From an uncultured Actinomycetes bacterium (lineage in GTDB: Bacteria > Actinomycetota > Thermoleophilia > Gaiellales > JAICJC01), in NCBI GenBank assembly GCA_963757605.1, contig CAVWSF010000005.1, positions 1,587,667 through 1,651,666 on the forward strand: a DNA stretch of 64,000 bases, in the 5' to 3' direction. Under the pieces are notes generated by a model, which saw nothing but the letters and a program-made list of their open reading frames with translations, had not been told where the DNA came from and searched no databases. How positions within the stretch are numbered: the first letter of the stretch is position 1; every line of letters begins with the position of its first letter. The position numbers and the translations under genes are program-made. Below, piece by piece: positions 11,382-46,273 of the stretch.

Positions 11382-12338
11382 CTACCGAATCGCCGCGAGC
11401 TCGGACGCGATCCGGCTCAAGACGTCGGCCGCGGGCTCGACGGACGTGATTCGGCCGACGCCCCGGCCGGCGTAGAGGCACATCGCCTCGAGCTCGCCGG
11501 TGGTGTCGCGCCGGGGCTCGTCGGCCGCGTACCGCTCGATGTCGATCCGGCCGTGGCGGGCGACCACGTCGCCCTCCCCCGGCCGCGACCCCGACGGCGG
11601 GCGGCCGGCCTCGTCCCAGCGGCGGTAGGTGCTGTTGCGAAGGACGCGATGGGGAGCGCCGGGCCAACCGCCGTCGAAGAGGCCCGTGAGCACCGTGTCG
11701 GCGGCCGAGGCGGCGACGAGACGCGCCGACCACTCGGCGTGCACGTCCGCCTCCTCCGTCGCGACGAAGCGCGTCCCGAGCAGCGCGCCGGCGGCTCCCA
11801 CGGCCATCGCCGCCGCGACGCCCTGGCCGTCGGCGATGCCGCCCGCCGCGAGCACCGGCACGGGCAGCGTGCGGGCCAGCTCCTCGACGAGCGCGAGCAC
11901 GCCGGTGTCGCCCTGGACGTGGCCGCCGGCCTCGACTCCCTGGGCCACGACGACGTCGCAGCCCGCGGCGACCGCCGCCCGGGCCTCGGCCGCCGAGCCG
12001 GCCTGCGCGAGCACCGTGGCCCCGGACGCGTGGGCACGCGCGACCAGGCCGGCGTCGGTCCCCCAGGAGAACGAGATCAGCTCGACCTCCTCGGCGAGCG
12101 CGAGCTCGAGCCGCTCCTCCTGCTCGAACGCGAGGACGAGGTTGACCATGAACGGGCGCTCGGTCCGCCGGCGGATCTCGCGGATCTGCGACCGCATAGT
12201 CTCGGGCTCCGTCCACGACGCGCCCAGCGAGCCGATCCCGCCTGCCTCCGAGACGGCGGCAGCCAGGACCGGGGTGGCGGCCGGCCCGATCGGCGCCTGC
12301 ACCACCGGCACGCGCCACGGAAGCGGGGGGCCATTCAC
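11382..12338 (-). CDS. nitronate monooxygenase (NMO / 2-nitropropane dioxygenase family, FMN TIM barrel)
   Basis: Only the last 318 codons of the 906-aa ORF 11382..14102 look coding. Motifs 'VPVVQAPIGP...AAVSEAGGIGSLG', 'VVAQGVEAGGH' and 'AAGGIADG' are present. Start is GTG 12338. Confidence 0.85.
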   Translation of the reverse strand: MNGPPLPWRVPVVQAPIGPAATPVLAAAVSEAGGIGSLGASWTEPETMRSQIREIRRRTERPFMVNLVLAFEQEERLELALAEEVELISFSWGTDAGLVARAHASGATVLAQAGSAAEARAAVAAGCDVVVAQGVEAGGHVQGDTGVLALVEELARTLPVPVLAAGGIADGQGVAAAMAVGAAGALLGTRFVATEEADVHAEWSARLVAASAADTVLTGLFDGGWPGAPHRVLRNSTYRRWDEAGRPPSGSRPGEGDVVARHGRIDIERYAADEPRRDTTGELEAMCLYAGRGVGRITSVEPAADVLSRIASELAAIR

Positions 12339-12370
12339 TCCGCGATCGTACCGCGGCGCAATTGCGCGAT

Positions 12371-15067
12371 CTACGTCTCGGCCGCGGCGGGCCGCCCCGG
12401 CCGGCGGGCGGCCAGCTCGGCCCGGTTTCGCACGCCGACCTTGCGGTAGATGCGGGACAGATGCGCCTCGACCGTCTTCTCGCTCATCCAGAGCGCCGCG
12501 GCGATCTCTTTGTTCCGCTTGCCCTCCGAGATGAGGCTCGCGACCTCGAGCTCGGCGGGTGTCAGCTCGTCGCGCTGCGCGGGCTCGCGCCGCAGCACCT
12601 TCCCGCTGCGGGCAAGCGCGGAGGCGGCCTGCTCCTCCCACCGCGCCGCCCCCAGGCGCTCGAGCGCCGCCCGGGCCTCCTCGAGCAGCTCGCGCGACTC
12701 GACCCGCTGCCCCGCGCGCCGCAGCGCGTCGCCCCATGCAAGCGCGGTGCGGGCCGCTGCGAATGGGTCGTCCCCGCGCCCGTGGAGCTCCCGGGCGTGC
12801 GCGAAGTGGGCGTCGCTCTCGACGCCGGCGACGGCCAGCGCCCGCTCGGCCACGGCGATCGCCGACTCCCGTCCGGAGCGGCGGGCGTCCTCGTGGAGCT
12901 TGGCGGCGGCCGCGACGGCCTCGTCGGCCCGGCCGGATCGCACGAGCGCCTCGACGAGATCGGCGCCGATCACCGGATGGGTCGTCGCGTCCGCGATCCC
13001 ACATCGCTCCTTGATCGCGAGCGCGGCCGCCAGCTCGGGGGCGGCCTCGTCCGCCTCGCCCGCGGCGAGCGCATGCTGTCCGCGGGCGGCGTGGACGCAC
13101 ATGAGCTGGTAGGGCAGCTCCAGGCGCTCGGACAGGTCCTGCTGGTGGGCGAGGGCCTCCTCGTCGAGGCGGCCCTGCGCGGCCGCCAGCCACGTGAGGA
13201 TGCTGAGCCCCCAGCACTCGTCGTTGGCGCGCCCCAACTGCCGGGAGAGGCGGACCGCGCGCTGGCCGTCGGCCTGGGCGCCCTGCCACGCGCCGGTCGT
13301 CCGCCGCAGCCACGCGCGGCTGATGAGCGGGTAGGTGAGCGCGCCAGGCGCCGACTGCTCGCACTCGTCGATCAGCTCGTCGAGGGTGCGCGACGCGGTC
13401 TCGTTGCGCTCGGCGAAGGCGAGCGTCATCCCCAGGTAGGCACGCAGCTGGAGGTCGCCCCGCACCGAGGGCGTGGCGGCCACGTCGGCCGCCACGGCGT
13501 CGATGTCCCGAACGGCCGTGTCGGCGTCGCCCAGGAAGACGAGCGAGGCGGCGCGGGCGATCCGGGCCAGGAGCTCGAGCGGGTCGCCGGCCGGCGCCAG
13601 CTCGAGCGCGCGGTCGGAGGCGTCGAGCGCCTCCTGCGGACGGCCGGCGCGGATGGACGGGTCGACGCACTCGATGTAGAGGGTGGCCGCGGAGTGCGCG
13701 TCGGCCTCCTCGAGCCGGCGGGCCGCGCGCAGGAGCCGGGATCCCGCGGCCTTGGTGGAGCTGCTGCGGGCCTCGATCCGTCCGCGCAGGAGCTCGACCC
13801 GCGCGACGTCGCCCGGCGGCGGCCCGTCGCGCTCGATCTCCGTCAGGATCGCCCCGGCCGCCGCGGCCTGGCCGCTGGCGTGGGCCGCATCGGCTGCCGC
13901 GAGCAGGCGGCGCACACGGGCCTCCGGCTCGACGCTCAGCGCCGCTGCTCGTTCGTACCACTCGGCCGTCGCGATCGCCCCGCCGCGCAGGCGCACGTCG
14001 GACGCCAGCCGGTCGACGGCTGCGGCCAGCTCCTCGTCCGGCTCCGTGGCAGCCGCCGCCCTGTGGGCGACCTGCTCCCATTCGAGCTCCGGCTCCACGC
14101 ACGCGGCCGCGAGGGCGGCGTGGGCGCGGCGCCGGTCAGGCCCGCTCGCGGCCCCGTAGACGGCCGACCGGATGAGCGGATGCCGAAAGCCCAGCCGCCC
14201 GGGCTCGACGCGCACGAGACCGTCGCGCTCGGCTGGCGCGAAGGCGTCGTCGGTCAGGCCGGCGCCGGCAAGCGCGCGGCGGATGACGAGCGGGCGGTCG
14301 GACCGGCAGGTCGCGAGGAGCAGCAGCGCCTCGCGGCACGACTCCGGCAGCGCCTCGACCATGCGGGCGTAGGCCTCCTCCAGGTTCGTGTGGCCCGGCT
14401 CGGCGCGGCCGTCCCCGCTCGTGGCGAGCTCGAGGAGCGCGAGCGGGTTCCCGGCGGCGACGGAGACCGTGTGCTGGACGGCGTCCGCCACGAGGCCGCG
14501 CTCCTCCAGGAGCTCGCGGGCCTGCTCCGCCGTCAGCGGTTGCGGGCTGATCGACGGCAGGTCGGCATAGCCCTTGGAGCGGGTCGCGATGAGGAGCGCC
14601 ACCCGGTCAGCCGCGATCCGGCGGGCCGCGAAGGCGATCGCCTCGGCAGAGGCCGCGTCGAGCCAGTGCGCGTCGTCGACGAGGGCGAGCACCGGCTGCG
14701 CCACGGCCGCCGCGCAGACCAGGTTGAACGCGCCGACGAGCACGGCCAGCCGGTCGACGGGCTGCGTCGGCCCGAGCGCGAGCGCGCTTCGCAGCGCCTC
14801 GGCCTGGCGGTCGGGGAGCTTCGAGACGAGCGCCGCGAACGGGGTGAGCAGGTCGACGAGGCCGACGAACGGGACCGACGCCTCGGCCTCGACACCCCGG
14901 GCCCGGACGATCGCCATGTCGCCGGCGCCCGCGGCGGCGTGCTCGAGGAGCGACGTCTTGCCGATGCCCGGCTCGCCCGAGACCACCAGCGTCCCGCCGT
15001 GCCCGGAGCGCGCGTCGTCGAGCAGGCGCTCGATGCGCAGGCACTCCTCCCCCCGGCCCACCAGCAT
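12371..15067 (-). CDS. LAL-type LuxR-family regulator (N-terminal AAA/P-loop, TPR-like middle, C-terminal LuxR HTH)
   Basis: 'LVGRGEE...VVSGEPGIGKTSLL' gives the Walker A motif, and a long helical repeat region follows. The C-terminus has 'LTPAELEVASLISEGKRNKEIAAALWMSEKTVEAHLSRIYRKLGV'-type HTH. Start moved to ATG 15067. Confidence 0.85.
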   Translation of the reverse strand: MLVGRGEECLRIERLLDDARSGHGGTLVVSGEPGIGKTSLLEHAAAGAGDMAIVRARGVEAEASVPFVGLVDLLTPFAALVSKLPDRQAEALRSALALGPTQPVDRLAVLVGAFNLVCAAAVAQPVLALVDDAHWLDAASAEAIAFAARRIAADRVALLIATRSKGYADLPSISPQPLTAEQARELLEERGLVADAVQHTVSVAAGNPLALLELATSGDGRAEPGHTNLEEAYARMVEALPESCREALLLLATCRSDRPLVIRRALAGAGLTDDAFAPAERDGLVRVEPGRLGFRHPLIRSAVYGAASGPDRRRAHAALAAACVEPELEWEQVAHRAAAATEPDEELAAAVDRLASDVRLRGGAIATAEWYERAAALSVEPEARVRRLLAAADAAHASGQAAAAGAILTEIERDGPPPGDVARVELLRGRIEARSSSTKAAGSRLLRAARRLEEADAHSAATLYIECVDPSIRAGRPQEALDASDRALELAPAGDPLELLARIARAASLVFLGDADTAVRDIDAVAADVAATPSVRGDLQLRAYLGMTLAFAERNETASRTLDELIDECEQSAPGALTYPLISRAWLRRTTGAWQGAQADGQRAVRLSRQLGRANDECWGLSILTWLAAAQGRLDEEALAHQQDLSERLELPYQLMCVHAARGQHALAAGEADEAAPELAAALAIKERCGIADATTHPVIGADLVEALVRSGRADEAVAAAAKLHEDARRSGRESAIAVAERALAVAGVESDAHFAHARELHGRGDDPFAAARTALAWGDALRRAGQRVESRELLEEARAALERLGAARWEEQAASALARSGKVLRREPAQRDELTPAELEVASLISEGKRNKEIAAALWMSEKTVEAHLSRIYRKVGVRNRAELAARRPGRPAAAET

Positions 15068-15140
15068 GCGGCGAGTGTACCGATCGTCGCAAGCTGCGGC
15101 ACAGTGCGGAACGGGGCGTCCGTGCAAAGCTTTCGGCCGC

Positions 15141-15776
15141 ATGCGGATCGCCATCATCGGTGCGGGCGCGATGGGCTCGGCGCTGGCGCGACGACTCGTC
15201 GCCGCGGGCCACTCGGTCGTCATCGGCTCCCGTGACGCCGGCCGGGCCCGGGCCGCTGCGGCGCGGGTGGGCGCGGCATCGGGGACGAGCTACGCCGAGG
15301 CGGCGGAGGTTGGCGACGTCGTCGTCCTGACCGTGCCGTGGCGGGCTGTTGGCGAGGTCGTGCCCGCGCTGCCGCTCGACGGCAAGATCCTGGTCGACGC
15401 GACGAACCCGTACCTCGACGACACCTTCGACGGCGGCGACGCGACGTGGTCGGCGCGCGACGAGTTCCCGCCCGGCGAGTCAGGCGCGTCGGCGATCCAG
15501 GCCCTCGCCCCCGGGGCCCGCGTCGTGAAGGCCTGGAACCACGTGTGGGCGCGCGCCGCAGAGCGGGGGTTGGGCGAGGTCCGGCCCGCGGTCTTCGTCT
15601 GCGGTGACGACGCCGCGGCCCGAGCCGTCGTCGCCGGCCTGGCCGCGGAGATGGGCTATGACCCGCACGACGCCGGCGGGCTGGAGCGGGCCCGTTGGCT
15701 CGAGGCGCTGACGCCGCTCGTCATCGCGCTCGGGGACTCCGCCTGCGCGCTCACGATGACGCGGACGCCCGGCTAG
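15141..15776 (+). CDS. NAD(P)-binding reductase of the NADPH-dependent F420 reductase (NpdG-like) family
   Basis: 'MRIAIIGAGAMGSALARRL' is a Rossmann GxGxxG motif, and 'LVDATNP' and 'VKAWN' are present. 211 aa. The upstream part of ORF 14574..15776 is a shadow of the LAL gene. Confidence 0.75.
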   Translation: MRIAIIGAGAMGSALARRLVAAGHSVVIGSRDAGRARAAAARVGAASGTSYAEAAEVGDVVVLTVPWRAVGEVVPALPLDGKILVDATNPYLDDTFDGGDATWSARDEFPPGESGASAIQALAPGARVVKAWNHVWARAAERGLGEVRPAVFVCGDDAAARAVVAGLAAEMGYDPHDAGGLERARWLEALTPLVIALGDSACALTMTRTPG

Positions 15777-16034
15777 ATCGTTGATTCCCAAATTGGCGGG
15801 ATGGCCGAGCCGCAAGCCAAAGGCTTGCTGCGGTCATGAGCGACCTGCTACCCAGCAGGTCACTCATGGGCGAGAACCGAGCAGCGCAAGGACACAGGGA
15901 AGCCCAATATCAGGCGATAGTGGGCTGACCGAGGACACAGCGATGCGACGGTTCGCAGCCGCAGCCCCGCCACAGTCGCCACCAGTCCCCAGCTGGACGT
16001 CCAGGCGCGCGGCAATTGGGAATCACCGATCTAG
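15773..16034. mobile_element. MITE-like non-coding element: 254 bp bounded by 18/19-nt imperfect terminal inverted repeats and flanked by CTAG on both sides
   Basis: Left end is CTAG|ATCGTTGATTCCCAAATTG (15773-15795). Right end is CAATTGGGAATCACCGAT|CTAG (16013-16034). The TIRs match at 17 positions with 1 mismatch and 1 indel. Hand-counted GC is about 63%, visibly lower than the flanks. There is no ORF, and internal hairpins lie at 15835-15868 and 15993-16004. Confidence 0.5.
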
Positions 16035-16420
16035 TCACTCCACCAGCCCTGGGTCATCTCGACCTCGCTCGGGTCGTCGCCGGCCCCGAAGGCCAGGTAC
16101 TCGATGCCGTCCGGCCCCGCCTCGACGGCCCGCATCGTGTCCTTGTCCAGGCGGATCGCGTCCCACTGGGCGAGCTCGACGATCTTGTCCTCGACCTTGA
16201 TCCGCCCCGACCCCTTGACCACCACGTACACCTCCTCCTGGCCGGCATGCTTGTGGCCGAAGGGGATGCGCAGATTCGGCGCGAGCCGAAACAGGCTGAG
16301 CCCGAGCTCCTGCCCCTCGATGGACCGGCGCGCGAACCGCGCCTCGAGCCCGTCCGGCATCCCGAAGTTGGGCGCCTGGTTCTCGACGTCGATCAGGTTC
16401 TGCTTGGTGTAGCCGGCCAT
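16031..16420 (-). CDS. cupin-domain protein
   Basis: 129 aa with 'PFGHKHAGQEEVYVVVKGSG' (cupin motif 1 with His) and 'AIRLDKDTMRAVEAG' (motif 2 region). Confidence 0.8.
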   Translation of the reverse strand: MAGYTKQNLIDVENQAPNFGMPDGLEARFARRSIEGQELGLSLFRLAPNLRIPFGHKHAGQEEVYVVVKGSGRIKVEDKIVELAQWDAIRLDKDTMRAVEAGPDGIEYLAFGAGDDPSEVEMTQGWWSD

Positions 16421-16481
16421 CGTTGGACCTCCTCGGTCGAGCCGACCGGAGGCCTACCCGCGAGCCGCGGGTGACAAACGC

Positions 16482-16991
16482 CTACGAGGTCGGCGTGGCG
16501 TCTCGCGGCTTGCAGCGCGGGTCGTGATATGCGGCGAGCCGGACGAGGAGCGCATGAAGGGCGGCGCGCTCGCCTGGATCGAGCGGCGCGAGGAACTTGT
16601 CCTCGAGCTTGACCACGATCGCACGGAGCTTCGCGAGCGCCTTTCGCCCCTCCGGCGTCATCTTGACGACGTGCCGGCGGCGGTCTTCGGGATCGCGCTT
16701 GCGGACGACCAGGTCGCGCTCCTCGAGCTCGTCGAGCAGGCGCACGACATGGCTTCGGTCGTAGCCGAGCGCGTCGGCGATCGCCGCCTGGGTCTCGCGC
16801 GGGTCCTCCTCGAGCAGCGCCAGCACCGCGTAGTGGAACGGGCTGAGGCCGGTGCCCTCGAAGGCGCCATGCGAGTGGTCCTTGGCGGCGAAGCCGAGCC
16901 GCTTGAGGAGGAACGTCGAGCTGGAGAGCAGCTCCTTGGGCGGTCCGGCGAAGACCGCAGACCTCACGATCTGGGGTTCTGTCGCGTTCAC
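16482..16991 (-). CDS. MarR-family transcriptional regulator
   Basis: 169 aa with a winged-helix region 'FHYAVLALLEEDPRETQAAIADALGYDRSHVVRLLDELEERDLVVRKRDPEDRRRHVVKMTPEG'. It is divergent from the MFS gene at 17066. Confidence 0.85.
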   Translation of the reverse strand: MNATEPQIVRSAVFAGPPKELLSSSTFLLKRLGFAAKDHSHGAFEGTGLSPFHYAVLALLEEDPRETQAAIADALGYDRSHVVRLLDELEERDLVVRKRDPEDRRRHVVKMTPEGRKALAKLRAIVVKLEDKFLAPLDPGERAALHALLVRLAAYHDPRCKPRDATPTS

Positions 16992-17065
16992 ATCTAGAAG
17001 TGTAGCGCCTCCAAGCGTTCATGTGTGCTATCGTTGCACTCGTCCACGATTTATTGGAGCAATAG

Positions 17066-18532
17066 ATGACACTACCCTCGATCACACGGCAAGACGGAGC
17101 GCGCAAGTGGCTCGCGCTGGCGGTGATCGTGGCGGCGCAGTTCATGGTCGTGCTCGACATCGCGATCGTGAACGTCGCGCTCCCCTCGATCAAGACTGAC
17201 CTGCACTTCGCAGAAGAGAACCTGCAGTGGGTGGTCAGCGCCTACGCCATCCTCTTCGGCGGCGCGCTGCTCCTCGGCGGCCGCCTGGGCGACATCTTCG
17301 GCCGGCGGCGGTTCTTCATCATCGGCCTCGCGCTCTTCACCGGCGCCTCGCTGCTCGGCGGCTTCGCATGGTCGGAAGGCTCGCTGATCGGCTTTCGCGC
17401 GCTTCAGGGGCTCGGCGGCGCGCTGCTCGCGCCGGCGACGCTCTCGATCCTCATGACGACCTTCGCCGAGGGTGCCGAGCGCAACCGCGCGCTCGGGATC
17501 TGGGGCGCGGCCTCGGGCAGCGGCGCTGCCGTGGGCGTGCTCCTCGGCGGCTTCCTCACGTCCTATCTCAGCTGGCCCTGGGTGTTCTTCATCAACGTGC
17601 CGGTCGGCCTCGCGGTGATCGCCGCGGCGCCGTTCGTCCTCGCCGAGAGCCGCGGCCAGCACGATCATCGCCACTTCGACGTCGCCGGCGCCGTCTCGGT
17701 CACCTCCGGCGTGATGCTGCTCGTCTACGCGATGACGCGCGCGACCCAGGACGGGTGGGGCAGCACGGCCACGATCTCGCTCCTCGCGGGGTCGGTCGCG
17801 CTGATCGCCGCGTTCCTCGTCATCGAGCTGCGCTCGCCGGCGCCGCTCCTGCCGCTTCGGATCTTCCGGCTGCGGTCGGTCGCGGCTGCGAACGCCGCCG
17901 CCGTCATGATCGGCGGCATCGCGTTCTCGCAGTTCTTCCTGCAGACGCTCTACATGCAGGATGTGCTCGGCTACTCCGCGATCCGCACGGGCGCGGGCTT
18001 CGCCACCATGGCGTTCACGATCATCGTCGTGTCGAACGTGGCTCAGCGGCTCGTCACCCGGGTGGGCCCCCGCCCGGTGCTGACCGTCGGGCTGCTTCTG
18101 GACTCGGTCTCACTGGCCCTGTTCACGCAGCTCCCGGTGGATGGGCACTACTTCTGGAACCTCTTCCCGGGGATGCTGATCGGCGGGATCGGGCTCGGGC
18201 TCTCGTTCGTGCCGATGACGATCGCCGGCCTCACCGGCGTCAGCCGGGCCGATGCGGGCATCGCCTCCGGGCTCATCAACACCAGCCGCCAGGTGGGCGG
18301 CGCGGTGGGCCTGGCCGCCGTCTCGACGATCGTGTCGTCCTACGCGGCGACCGGATCGCCGGCCGCGGTGAGCAACGGCCTCACAGACGGCTTCCAGGCG
18401 GGCTTCCTGGCGCTCGCCGGCGTCGCGCTCGCCGGCGCGGCGATCGCCGGCTTCATGCTCGCACCGCGGCCCGATCAGGCCGAGGTCGCGAGCGTTTCCC
18501 ATGACACCCGACCGCTCGAGGAGGCGGCTTGA
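17066..18532 (+). CDS. MFS efflux transporter, DHA2 (EmrB/QacA, 14-TMS) type
   Basis: 488 aa with 'FMVVLDIAIVNVALPSI', 'LQWVVSAYAILFGGALLLGGRLGDIFGRRR' and 'RALQGLGGALLAPATLSIL'. Confidence 0.85.
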   Translation: MTLPSITRQDGARKWLALAVIVAAQFMVVLDIAIVNVALPSIKTDLHFAEENLQWVVSAYAILFGGALLLGGRLGDIFGRRRFFIIGLALFTGASLLGGFAWSEGSLIGFRALQGLGGALLAPATLSILMTTFAEGAERNRALGIWGAASGSGAAVGVLLGGFLTSYLSWPWVFFINVPVGLAVIAAAPFVLAESRGQHDHRHFDVAGAVSVTSGVMLLVYAMTRATQDGWGSTATISLLAGSVALIAAFLVIELRSPAPLLPLRIFRLRSVAAANAAAVMIGGIAFSQFFLQTLYMQDVLGYSAIRTGAGFATMAFTIIVVSNVAQRLVTRVGPRPVLTVGLLLDSVSLALFTQLPVDGHYFWNLFPGMLIGGIGLGLSFVPMTIAGLTGVSRADAGIASGLINTSRQVGGAVGLAAVSTIVSSYAATGSPAAVSNGLTDGFQAGFLALAGVALAGAAIAGFMLAPRPDQAEVASVSHDTRPLEEAA

Positions 18533-44490: not shown

Positions 44491-46273
44491 GCGTACCGGG
44501 CTCACCCGCCTCGGCGCGTACCTGACCGGGCGCCGGGCGCTCGTCGGCGGCCTGATCCTCGTCGCAACCGTGAGCGCCGCCGCCCAGTCCGGCGGCTGGC
44601 TGCTCGTACGGGCCGCGATCGATGACGGCATCGCCAAGGCCGACCGGCACACGCTCACGGTCGTCGTCATCCTCTACCTGGCGGTGGCCGCGCTCGGGTG
44701 GATCTGCCAGCTCGTGCTGATCCGCGGCCTTGCGGTCATCGGCCAGGGGATCGTGCTCGGCCTGCGGCGCGACCTCTTCGACCACCTGACCTCGCTCTCG
44801 CTGCGCTACTTCTCGGAGCAGCGGGCGGGATGGATCATCGCCCGCGTGACGAGCGACGTCGACGCCATCTCCGACGCGCTGTCACAGGGTCTCCCGACCC
44901 TGGTCTCGAACATCGTCCTGCTCCCAACGACGGTGATCGTGCTCTTCGTCGTCGACTGGCGGCTGGGTCTCGTGGCCATGGTGATCCTGCCGCCCGCGCT
45001 CATCCTGTCGCGCTGGTTCCAGCGCAAGTCGGCGGTGGCGCAGCTCGACGTGCGAAACCGCATCGCCGCCGTCACGGCCCAGGTGGCCGAGTCGGTGTCG
45101 GGGATGGCGATCGTGCAGGCGTTCAACCGCGAGCGCCAGTTCCAGGGGCAGTTCGACGAGCTGAACAGCGAGAACCGCAGCTCCAACATCTACGCCCAGC
45201 AGCTCTTCTCGGTGTTCTTCCCGTCGATCGAGCTCCTGGGGGCGATCTCGACCTGTGCCGTGCTCGTCGTGGGAGCGCGGTTCCTCTCCGAGGGCACGCT
45301 CACGATCGGCACGCTGATCACCGCCATCTACCTGCTGCAGCTCGTGTTCCAGCCGCTCCAGGAGCTCTCCGACGTGTACGGCCAGCTCCAGGCGGCGGGC
45401 GCGGCGATGGTGAAGATCACCTCGGTGCTCGACGCCGAGCCCGAGATCGGCGATCGCCCCGGCGCCGTGCCGATGCCGCCGATCGCGGGCGCCGTCGACC
45501 TCGACGAGGTCAGCTTCGCGTACGGCGAGACGGACGTGCTGCACGACATCTCGATCCACGTGCCCGCCGGCGGCTGCATCGCGCTCGTGGGCCAGACGGG
45601 CGGCGGCAAGTCGACGCTCGCGAAGCTGATCGCGCGCTTCTACGACCCGCGCACCGGCACCGTGTCGGTCGACGGGACCGATCTGCGCGACGTGCGGCTG
45701 GGCAGCTATCGCCGCCAGCTCGGGGTCGTGCTGCAGGACCCGTTCCTCTTCTCGGGCACCATCGCCGACAATCTGCGCTTCGGGCGGCCGGAGGCGAGCG
45801 ACGACGAGGTGCGCGAGACGGCCGCCGCGATCGGCCTCGACAGGCTCGTCGGCCGCCTCCACGGCGGGCTCGACCACGAGGTGCGCGAGGGCGGCTCCGG
45901 GCTCTCGGCCGGGGAGCGGCAGCTGATCTCGATCGCGCGGGCGCTCCTCGCCGACCCGCGCATCCTGATCCTCGACGAGGCCACGTCGAACATCGACCGG
46001 CCAACGGAGGTCCTGATCGAGCGGGCACTCGACCGGCTCCTGCACGGGCGCAGCTCGGTCATCATCGCCCACCGCCTGGCCACCGTCCGGCGGGCCGACG
46101 AGGTGATGGTCGTCGAGCGCGGCAAGATCGTCCAGCGGGGAGCCCCGGCCGACCTGCTCGCAGCCGACGGCCCGTTTCGGCGGCTGGCCGGGAGCCGCGA
46201 CCTGGCGGGCCGCGCGGCCCGAGACGCGGGGCGGCGCCGGCCGCCGGCCGTCCGGGCGCGACCGTGTTCCTAG
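44480..46273 (+). CDS. ABC transporter (fused permease + ATPase), partner of the upstream gene
   Basis: 597 aa and intact. A six-TM domain, 'GQTGGGKST', 'LSAGERQLISIARAL' and 'ILILDEATSNID' are present. It overlaps the upstream gene end by 11 nt. Confidence 0.85.
   Translation: MSHRRTGLTRLGAYLTGRRALVGGLILVATVSAAAQSGGWLLVRAAIDDGIAKADRHTLTVVVILYLAVAALGWICQLVLIRGLAVIGQGIVLGLRRDLFDHLTSLSLRYFSEQRAGWIIARVTSDVDAISDALSQGLPTLVSNIVLLPTTVIVLFVVDWRLGLVAMVILPPALILSRWFQRKSAVAQLDVRNRIAAVTAQVAESVSGMAIVQAFNRERQFQGQFDELNSENRSSNIYAQQLFSVFFPSIELLGAISTCAVLVVGARFLSEGTLTIGTLITAIYLLQLVFQPLQELSDVYGQLQAAGAAMVKITSVLDAEPEIGDRPGAVPMPPIAGAVDLDEVSFAYGETDVLHDISIHVPAGGCIALVGQTGGGKSTLAKLIARFYDPRTGTVSVDGTDLRDVRLGSYRRQLGVVLQDPFLFSGTIADNLRFGRPEASDDEVRETAAAIGLDRLVGRLHGGLDHEVREGGSGLSAGERQLISIARALLADPRILILDEATSNIDRPTEVLIERALDRLLHGRSSVIIAHRLATVRRADEVMVVERGKIVQRGAPADLLAADGPFRRLAGSRDLAGRAARDAGRRRPPAVRARPCS

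Follow-up and report, generated by a model that had tools for sequence, protein, structure and literature searches.

What is a spacer of 254-256 bp doing between two convergent genes, if the same tetranucleotide, CTAG, stands at both of its edges (15773-15776 and 16031-16034) and the TAG stop codon of each gene lies within one of them? The question arose in a 64-kb stretch of DNA, the whole of which is called the window hereafter. A first-pass annotation regarded the spacer as a MITE candidate that had been inserted into a CTAG once shared by the two stop codons. From the copies and the empty sites described below, we regard 15776-16031 as very probably a non-autonomous DNA transposon (MITE), a member of a family spread through soil actinobacteria of the Gaiellales/Thermoleophilia type.

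Anatomy of the spacer and its boundaries

Both genes that border the spacer are confirmed as modelled. The predicted reductase is 100% identical over its full length to a 211-aa database protein (P0121), and the cupin is likewise 100% identical, full-length, to another (P0001). With these gene models and identical proteins, the first-pass claim that the flanking CTAGs contain the TAG stops of both convergent genes is confirmed: the reductase gene ends with the TAG at 15774-15776, inside the left CTAG. P0001 and P0121 are both encoded on one contig. The features of the locus are listed below, in which L148 and L149 are relatives with an empty site.

15141-15776, + strand: NADPH-dependent F420 reductase-like gene (F420_oxidored), 211 aa; Pfam PF03807, E=2.7e-23
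15773-15776, no strand: left target duplicate, CTAG, or its central TA at 15774-15775; the single CTAG of L148/L149 aligns here
15776-15795, + strand: left terminal inverted repeat (TIR), GATCGTTGATTCCCAAATTG; family consensus GATCGTTGATTCCCAATTCC
15809-15868, + strand: optional two-hairpin cassette; hairpin 1 with arms 15809-15818/15822-15831, hairpin 2 with arms 15835-15849/15854-15868
15901-15926, + strand: central hairpin of the core, AGCCCAATATC / GATAGTGGGCT; a hairpin in 18/18 aligned copies
15934-15968, + strand: most conserved internal block, ...GATGCGACGGTTCGCAGCCGCAGCCCC..., with invariant alignment columns; short hairpin, alignment pairs 289-312
15993-16004, no strand: 12-bp palindrome, CTGGACGTCCAG; CCGTACGTCCAG in other copies
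16012-16031, - strand: right TIR, reverse complement GATCGGTGATTCCCAATTGC
16031-16034, no strand: right target duplicate, CTAG, or its central TA at 16032-16033; the single CTAG of L148/L149 aligns here
16031-16420, - strand: cupin gene, 129 aa; TAG stop at 16031-16033 (- strand), within the right CTAG

Just inside the left CTAG lies the repeat ATCGTTGATTCCCAAATTG (15777-15795), and its counterpart on the right is CAATTGGGAATCACCGAT (16013-16030), whose reverse complement is ATCGGTGATTCCCAATTG. An inverted-repeat search returned arms at 15773-15791 and 16016-16034, 19 nt long and 95% complementary. The 19-nt TIRs of the window copy differ by one mismatch and, in addition, one indel; the coordinates of the CTAGs and of the repeats, as well as the one mismatch and one indel, had all been given correctly at the first reading. 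The 15-mer core of the TIR occurs at two sites only in the 64 kb, both at the element ends, against 0.08 expected by chance. The element also differs from its surroundings in composition: its GC content, first put at about 63% and below that of the flanks, is 0.630 (15777-16030), to be compared with 0.76 and 0.68 in the flanking genes and 0.724 in the 64-kb window. As had been stated, there is no plausible ORF in any of the six frames; five of them are interrupted by stop codons, and the sixth, open throughout, is continuous with neither flanking gene. Two internal features that the first-pass annotation pointed out are real, and each has its own distribution among the copies to be described: the 15-bp hairpin with one mismatch at 15835-15868 belongs to the optional cassette, not to the 196-bp core, and the palindrome at 15993-16004 is confined to the lineage of the window copy and one close relative (L033) rather than being family-wide.

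Copies at unrelated loci and empty sites in relatives

If the spacer is a mobile element, where are its other copies? The window itself has only this one. A scan with TAGATCGNTGATTCCCAA of 185,579 genomes, one per species, returned 30 loci, of which nine proved to be true relatives by whole-element BLASTN and a look at their ends (L001, L004, L007, L009, L015, L017, L022, L023, and L024). Their hosts are Gaiellales, Solirubrobacterales and soil MAGs labelled "uncultured Actinomycetes," and their lengths range from 159 to 374 bp. The L009 copy is 82% identical to that of the window over the full length, and at least four copies are carried by a single MAG, MFD06085.bin.1.163. A metagenome scan, for which the query was ATCGNTGATTCCCAATTSC, gave about 19 further copies, all from soil contigs with a GC content of 0.68-0.75; of these contigs, five terminate within the element, as assemblies do at repeats. 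The closest match to the window copy is L033 (93.8% over 162 nt), and its flanks are different. In total, the family comprises about 30 copies at unrelated loci, which have a common 20-nt TIR and an internal identity of 75-95%, and this is what turned the initial MITE candidate into a member of a family. When 18 complete copies were aligned, a core of 194-201 bp (the 196-bp core) emerged, with the 20-nt TIR GATCGTTGATTCCCAATTCC, a long-range stem, the central hairpin and a near-invariant block, GATGCGACGGTTCGCAGCCGCAGCC. The TIR columns pair in 15-18 of these 18 copies, and in the central hairpin three covarying pairs set one sub-lineage apart.

It is to be noted that matches to the TIR pattern are found far outside these hosts as well. 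Single-ended matches in cyanobacteria, Firmicutes, Bacteroidota and others lie in coding-like sequence with no second end within 4 kb, and they are taken as chance matches because there is no similarity beyond the pattern. The 25 matches to a 16-nt TIR in IMG/VR, with neither a TA flank nor internal similarity, were likewise put down to chance, and the whole element found no match among the plasmids of PLSDB in the distant mode of blastn. Literature searches with the TIR string, and with the taxon plus MITE, retrieved no description of the family. We take the spacer for one member of an as yet undescribed group of small, non-coding mobile elements in soil actinobacteria of the Gaiellales type. 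Of the features by which bacterial MITEs are defined and that were examined here, it has TIRs, target duplication, a length below ~500 bp without a transposase ORF, dispersed copies and presence/absence polymorphism, in short all except a known autonomous partner.

The presence/absence polymorphism is seen at this very locus. The first-pass annotation predicted that removal of the element plus one CTAG would leave the empty site ggCTAGtc, in which two convergent stops share one CTAG, and exactly this site (...acgcccggCTAGtcactcc...) exists in seven relatives with the same reductase/cupin pair (L148-L154), in all of which the two convergent genes overlap by 4 nt. In L148, whose junction reads ...ggacgcCTAGtcgctcc..., the left flank is 92.5% identical over 2.26 kb; by BLASTN its positions 1-2259 correspond to 13517-15776 of the window and its positions 2256-2362 to 16031-16137. 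L149-L154 form a second group, distinct from L148, and their junction, ...acgcccggCTAGtcactccaccagccctggg..., equals the window flanks joined via one CTAG; the site acgcccggCTAGtcactccaccag is identical to the window flanks, and the C-terminus of the reductase (...TPG*) is also the same. In both groups the single CTAG aligns to both copies in the window. The site is thus polymorphic for the insertion, which is present in the window and missing from L148 and L149-L154. In a further relative, L122, the element is missing and the stops of the reductase and cupin genes abut. Relatives L110-L120 are of another kind: they have a sigma-ECF gene after the cupin gene, and their homology to the window ends at the cupin stop. 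We considered whether the element marks a rearrangement breakpoint, and this idea was dropped since L121 (described below) and L148-L154 have the reductase/cupin arrangement without any element. The difference between sigma-ECF and reductase is a separate polymorphism in gene content.

Comparison of the filled and empty sites shows that the MITE evidently landed in the single CTAG through which the reductase and cupin genes, being convergent, had overlapping TAG stops. Neither protein was altered and no codon was changed, because the duplicated target leaves each gene with a TAG of its own. How unusual is such a landing site? CTAG is four-fold under-represented in the 64-kb window (16 sites, where 67 are expected), about half of the 16 sites terminate long ORFs, and TA in general is also rare in this 72%-GC genome. 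One of these sites, at 46270-46273, is an intact CTAG that closes long ORFs on both strands, as the first-pass annotation had pointed out. Among about 21 family copies, at least 10 have a flanking TAG that ends an ORF whose GC3 is 0.89 or higher. The family would often land at gene ends because CTAG is rare and many CTAG sites are TAG stops of long ORFs; from these counts we infer that it tends to insert on stop codons.

Target, possible footprint and the likely type of transposase

By which kind of transposase might such an element be moved? CTAG precedes 41 of the 50 element ends, and the others are variants one or two bases off, e.g., CGAG, CCAG, TTAG and GGAG. All flanks fit C-TA-[G...C]-TA-G, that is, a duplication of TA, and a CTAG duplication fits equally. 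The first-pass annotation had called the two alternatives, CTAG of the IS5 type and TA of the IS630 type, equally compatible, and this holds for the flanks as a whole; one copy (L001) and one junction (L121) lean towards TA and IS630. The case for TA rests on these two, because nearly all copies sit in CTAG.

The junction is that of L121, the closest relative of the window, which is collinear with 11776-15779 and 16028-17987 at 94.3-94.5% identity. It has no element, and its junction, ...gcCGAGATCTAGtcgc..., is the empty site plus six bases. The site itself, CGAGATCTAG, matches CTAGATCTAG at 9 of 10 positions, a sequence in which the two target copies are separated by GA and TC, the terminal dinucleotides of the two element ends; L121 reads as C-TA-GA|TC-TA-G with one T>G change. 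Owing to this change the first TAG becomes GAG, and the reductase gains two residues to be 213 aa. The 10-mer CTAGATCTAG with up to one mismatch is expected 0.34 times per 64 kb. Cleavage by ISY100 falls precisely at the 3' ends of the element but 2 nt inward of the 5' ends, and TA is duplicated (PMC2170065); the L121 junction is consistent with the 2-nt staggered excision of ISY100. It may well be an excision footprint of a Tc1/IS630-type cut. A deletion between the terminal GATC direct repeats, carried out without transposase, could equally account for the junction, since it would yield the same product as CTAGATCTAG; an unrelated 6-nt in-frame indel could do so, too. Other CTAGATCTAG footprints were found neither in the window nor at any of the loci.

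The same MITE might instead be derived from, or mobilised by, an IS5-like or IS701-like transposase, in which case the duplication would be 4 bp of the YTAR type (CTAG) and the TIR would start from ATCG. Such a scheme fits the flanks equally well; CTAG is perfect on both sides in 12 of the 21 complete copies, and there is a precedent in MITEPsy1, which is related to IS5 and duplicates CTAG or YTAA (PMC3189936). Several details do not go along with it. CTAA or TTAA was seen at none of the 50 ends, and the base adjoining ATCG is always G at these 50 ends, as expected if this G belongs to the TIR. The flanks of the L001 copy are TTAG and CTAG, which fits duplication of TA in a TTAG target and is no exact 4-bp repeat. 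In L121, an IS5-type excision would have kept 1 nt per end, which corresponds to no known cleavage pattern, whereas duplication of TA implies 2 nt, the same as in ISY100/Tc1. Nor has any IS5-like partner been found. We therefore consider mobilisation of the IS5 or IS701 type somewhat unlikely, and the evidence leans towards TA (IS630-like) rather than CTAG (IS5-like) duplication.

The TA-in-CTAG target, the TTAG/CTAG flanks of L001 and the probable 2-nt footprint together suggest that the MITE is mobilised in trans by a transposase of the IS630/Tc1-mariner type. IS630 itself prefers TA within CTAG (Tenzen and Ohtsubo, 1991, as cited in PMC2170065). A DDE transposase of this type would bind the TIRs in trans and integrate the element at the TA inside CTAG, with duplication of this TA, and excision would proceed by double-strand cuts with a 2-nt stagger. 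Who provides the transposase? The first-pass annotation proposed a search for a full-length IS with the same TIR, and this search came out negative: no autonomous IS with the TIRs of the family was found in the 185,579 representative genomes, the JGI metagenome set, IMG/VR or PLSDB, and among the matches in these genome, metagenome, viral and plasmid collections there was neither a TIR pair 0.7-3 kb apart nor a transposase adjoining a TIR. The family of the transposase is therefore read solely from the target and the footprint. The partner may be missing because MAGs lack assembled IS copies.

The cassette, other identities and known elements

The window copy is longer than the core because it has a two-hairpin cassette of about 60 nt (58-62 nt) at 15809-15868, which is missing from the 196-bp core copies. 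Its pattern is GCNGCAAGSC-loop-GSCTTGCNGC-N8-12-GACCTGCT-loop-AGCAGGTC. At the same position as in the window (alignment columns 35-92), the cassette is present only in the window copy, L009, L099, L079 and L015; a second position is occupied in L015, and a third in L079 and L015, and the orientation is constant across these three alternative positions. The core of the window copy groups with the L004/L053/L106 sub-lineage, which is otherwise cassette-free. The cassette is found in two different core lineages. Over eight cassette instances, pairing is kept in 92.5% of the stem cells, and compensatory changes on both sides are seen in 10 of the 25 pairs; none of 500 shuffles and no slid register come close to this pairing. 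As judged from these eight related sequences, this shows that the cassette hairpins are maintained, whatever the cause.

Can a cassette be a mobile element by itself? Three positions, one orientation, two core lineages and compensated stems are what one would look for in a distinct site-selective module, mobile or copy-pasted, that has made the MITE its host, one hitch-hiker riding in another. We think this rather improbable. If true, it would imply either a hairpin-recognising mechanism, such as a single-strand transposase of the HUH/Y1 type or hairpin-templated duplication, or selection for a function at the level of transcripts, e.g., termination or RNA stability.

A similar idea can be extended to the element as a whole. 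Being hairpin-rich, and having a 60-nt cassette that occurs at three positions in one orientation with covarying stems, the spacer might be a hairpin element, REP/BIME-like or of the IS200/IS605 type, for which a Y1 (HUH) transposase would mobilise a single DNA strand. Yet its long TIRs and duplicated target are hallmarks of DDE transposition and are absent from IS200/IS605 and REP, and in the DNA fetched here no solitary cassette was found outside MITE copies, so that this reading, hardly credible for the element, could fit at most the cassette alone. Or is the spacer not mobile DNA at all but a structured RNA or regulatory element specific to this locus, such as a bidirectional terminator or an sRNA? 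The predicted folds are very stable compared with shuffled controls (z = -9.0 and -7.3 for the + and - strands, respectively), and the central and cassette hairpins retain pairing through compensatory changes. However, L121, L122 and L148-L154 lack the sequence at this junction, and other genomes have it at many junctions that are unrelated to this one. In a search of Rfam 15 at a permissive E-value the best match was a 26-nt leader model with only 15 bits (E=4.6), below the gathering score, and a scan of the element with consensus patterns detected no sigma-70-like promoter and no terminator-like U tract. The first-pass annotation had reasoned that a single copy conserved at this locus would speak for such an RNA; what was found is a dispersed family, and the nearest relative, L121 (94.3%), is without the element. 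A locus-specific RNA is thus very improbable as the identity of the spacer, which we continue to regard as a MITE. A secondary, exapted role of transcribed hairpins is possible and would not change what the element is. One may speculate that a self-paired transcript, or the DNA itself, with its TIR stem and internal hairpins, might keep the two convergent genes apart as a spacer or act as their terminator.

What are the known counterparts of this family? Its sequence has no similarity to described elements, and the comparison is therefore one of architecture. In its mechanism it would be like RUP of Streptococcus pneumoniae, a MITE mobilised by IS630-Spn1. Like MITEs mobilised by IS630/Tc1-mariner transposases in general, the element in the window is small and ORF-less, has TIRs of ~20 nt and is inserted at TA, here within CTAG; unlike them, it has an optional hairpin cassette and uncultured Gaiellales/Thermoleophilia hosts, and no IS630-family partner was found for it. 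Correia elements (CREE) of Neisseria are an orphan MITE family, highly palindromic and with TA duplication, whose short and long variants differ by an internal segment; they often lie beside genes and are co-transcribed with them, and experiments have demonstrated their processing by RNase III and the presence of promoter and IHF sites. The window family is likewise orphan and strongly palindromic and has short and long variants. However, its sequence and hosts are unrelated, and it is known here from sequence alone. As to actinobacteria, mycobacterial MIRUs are intergenic repeats that reside at overlapping stop and start codons and keep the termination codons of their neighbours, just as the element in the window is an actinobacterial repeat located exactly at a gene boundary with the stops of both neighbours kept. 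MIRUs are, however, direct repeats in tandem and have neither TIRs nor a duplicated target, both of which the window element has, and the mechanism is a different one. A resemblance in the target is offered by MITEPsy1 of Pseudomonas syringae, derived from IS5/ISPsy2, which is non-coding, 100-250 nt long, and has 18-nt TIRs with CTAG on both sides (PMC3189936). The element in the window is also small and non-coding, uses a CTAG target and has CTAG on either side. MITEPsy1, in contrast, uses YTAA too, and its TIR (GGAAGGTC...) matches that of a known IS5-family partner, whereas the window family has only CTAG-type flanks, an unrelated TIR and no known partner.

As a kind of element, then, the one described here is ordinary, a bacterial MITE; the family is new, and the site is unusually well documented. 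In practical terms, the element breaks assemblies, can be used as a strain-level marker, and is to be masked in searches for non-coding RNAs. A filled site, an exact empty site and a possible footprint at one locus make up a natural record of cut-and-paste transposition that is rarely seen outside experiments. For Gaiellales/Thermoleophilia, an abundant and almost uncultured soil lineage whose mobile elements are not described in the literature searched, the element provides a MITE family with clean documentation. The family also illustrates a rule that would apply to high-GC genomes in general: a transposon that requires TA or CTAG is funnelled to TAG stop codons. Here, two overlapping convergent genes were split and both proteins stayed unchanged, because the target is regenerated on both sides.

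CTAG sites and changed flanks

The tetranucleotide CTAG, which flanks the MITE on both sides, is about 4-fold rarer in the window than expected from dinucleotide shuffles (16 observed against 67 expected), and about half of these 16 sites form the end of a long ORF. At 46270-46273, long ORFs on both strands end in one CTAG, as at the pre-insertion site of the MITE. Among loci fetched from other genomes and metagenomes (L-numbers, with positions in the locus after the colon), CTAG has changed to CGAG at a MITE flank or junction in the following places.

Changes of CTAG to CGAG
L082:222-225
L092:687-690
L024:1775-1778
L121:3996-3999

The L092 and L024 loci look orthologous to each other, and the changes apparently represent three independent cases. 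In L121, the closest relative, the change lengthens the reductase by two codons.

Gene content and neighboring elements

Comparison of window positions 12371-16420 with L110-L122 and L148-L154 shows a polymorphism in which genes lie between the AAA_16/GerE regulator and the cupin gene. This interval carries a sigma-ECF and anti-sigma pair in L110-L120, the F420 reductase in the window, L121 and L148, and both of them in L149 and one 13.7-kb JGI contig.

A probable MarR operator lies at 16985-17003 of the window: the imperfect palindrome CACATCTAGAAGTG, with CTAG at its center, in the divergent intergenic region (57% GC) that separates the MarR-type gene from the MFS gene. In L056:1040-1280, a MITE copy sits at the exact center of a perfect 36-bp palindrome, GAGTAACAAAGTCCTA-CTAG-TAGGACTTTGTTACTC. 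The palindrome could consist of the ends of a different element; an operator is another possibility.

Repeated palindromic sequences are known targets of IS110-type elements. In L039:1-1365 (metagenome contig Ga0066809_10006787), an IS110-family element, whose transposase ORF of 344 aa matches Pfam PF01548 and PF02371, splits a MITE copy just 3′ of the central hairpin.

The two-hairpin cassette and mini-derivatives

Some MITE copies contain an optional two-hairpin cassette of 58-62 nt.

Places where the two-hairpin cassette occurs
Window 15809-15868
L015:267-640
L079:1073-1387

It takes three alternative positions within the copies, always in a single orientation, and is found in two different core lineages; compensatory changes occur in 10 of the 25 pairs of its stems. 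No cassette was seen outside the MITE among the DNA fetched.

MITE mini-derivatives
L023:1492-1564, 73 bp
L037:3091-3135, 44 bp

These two have hardly anything beyond the two TIRs, and show that internal deletion products of the MITE persist.
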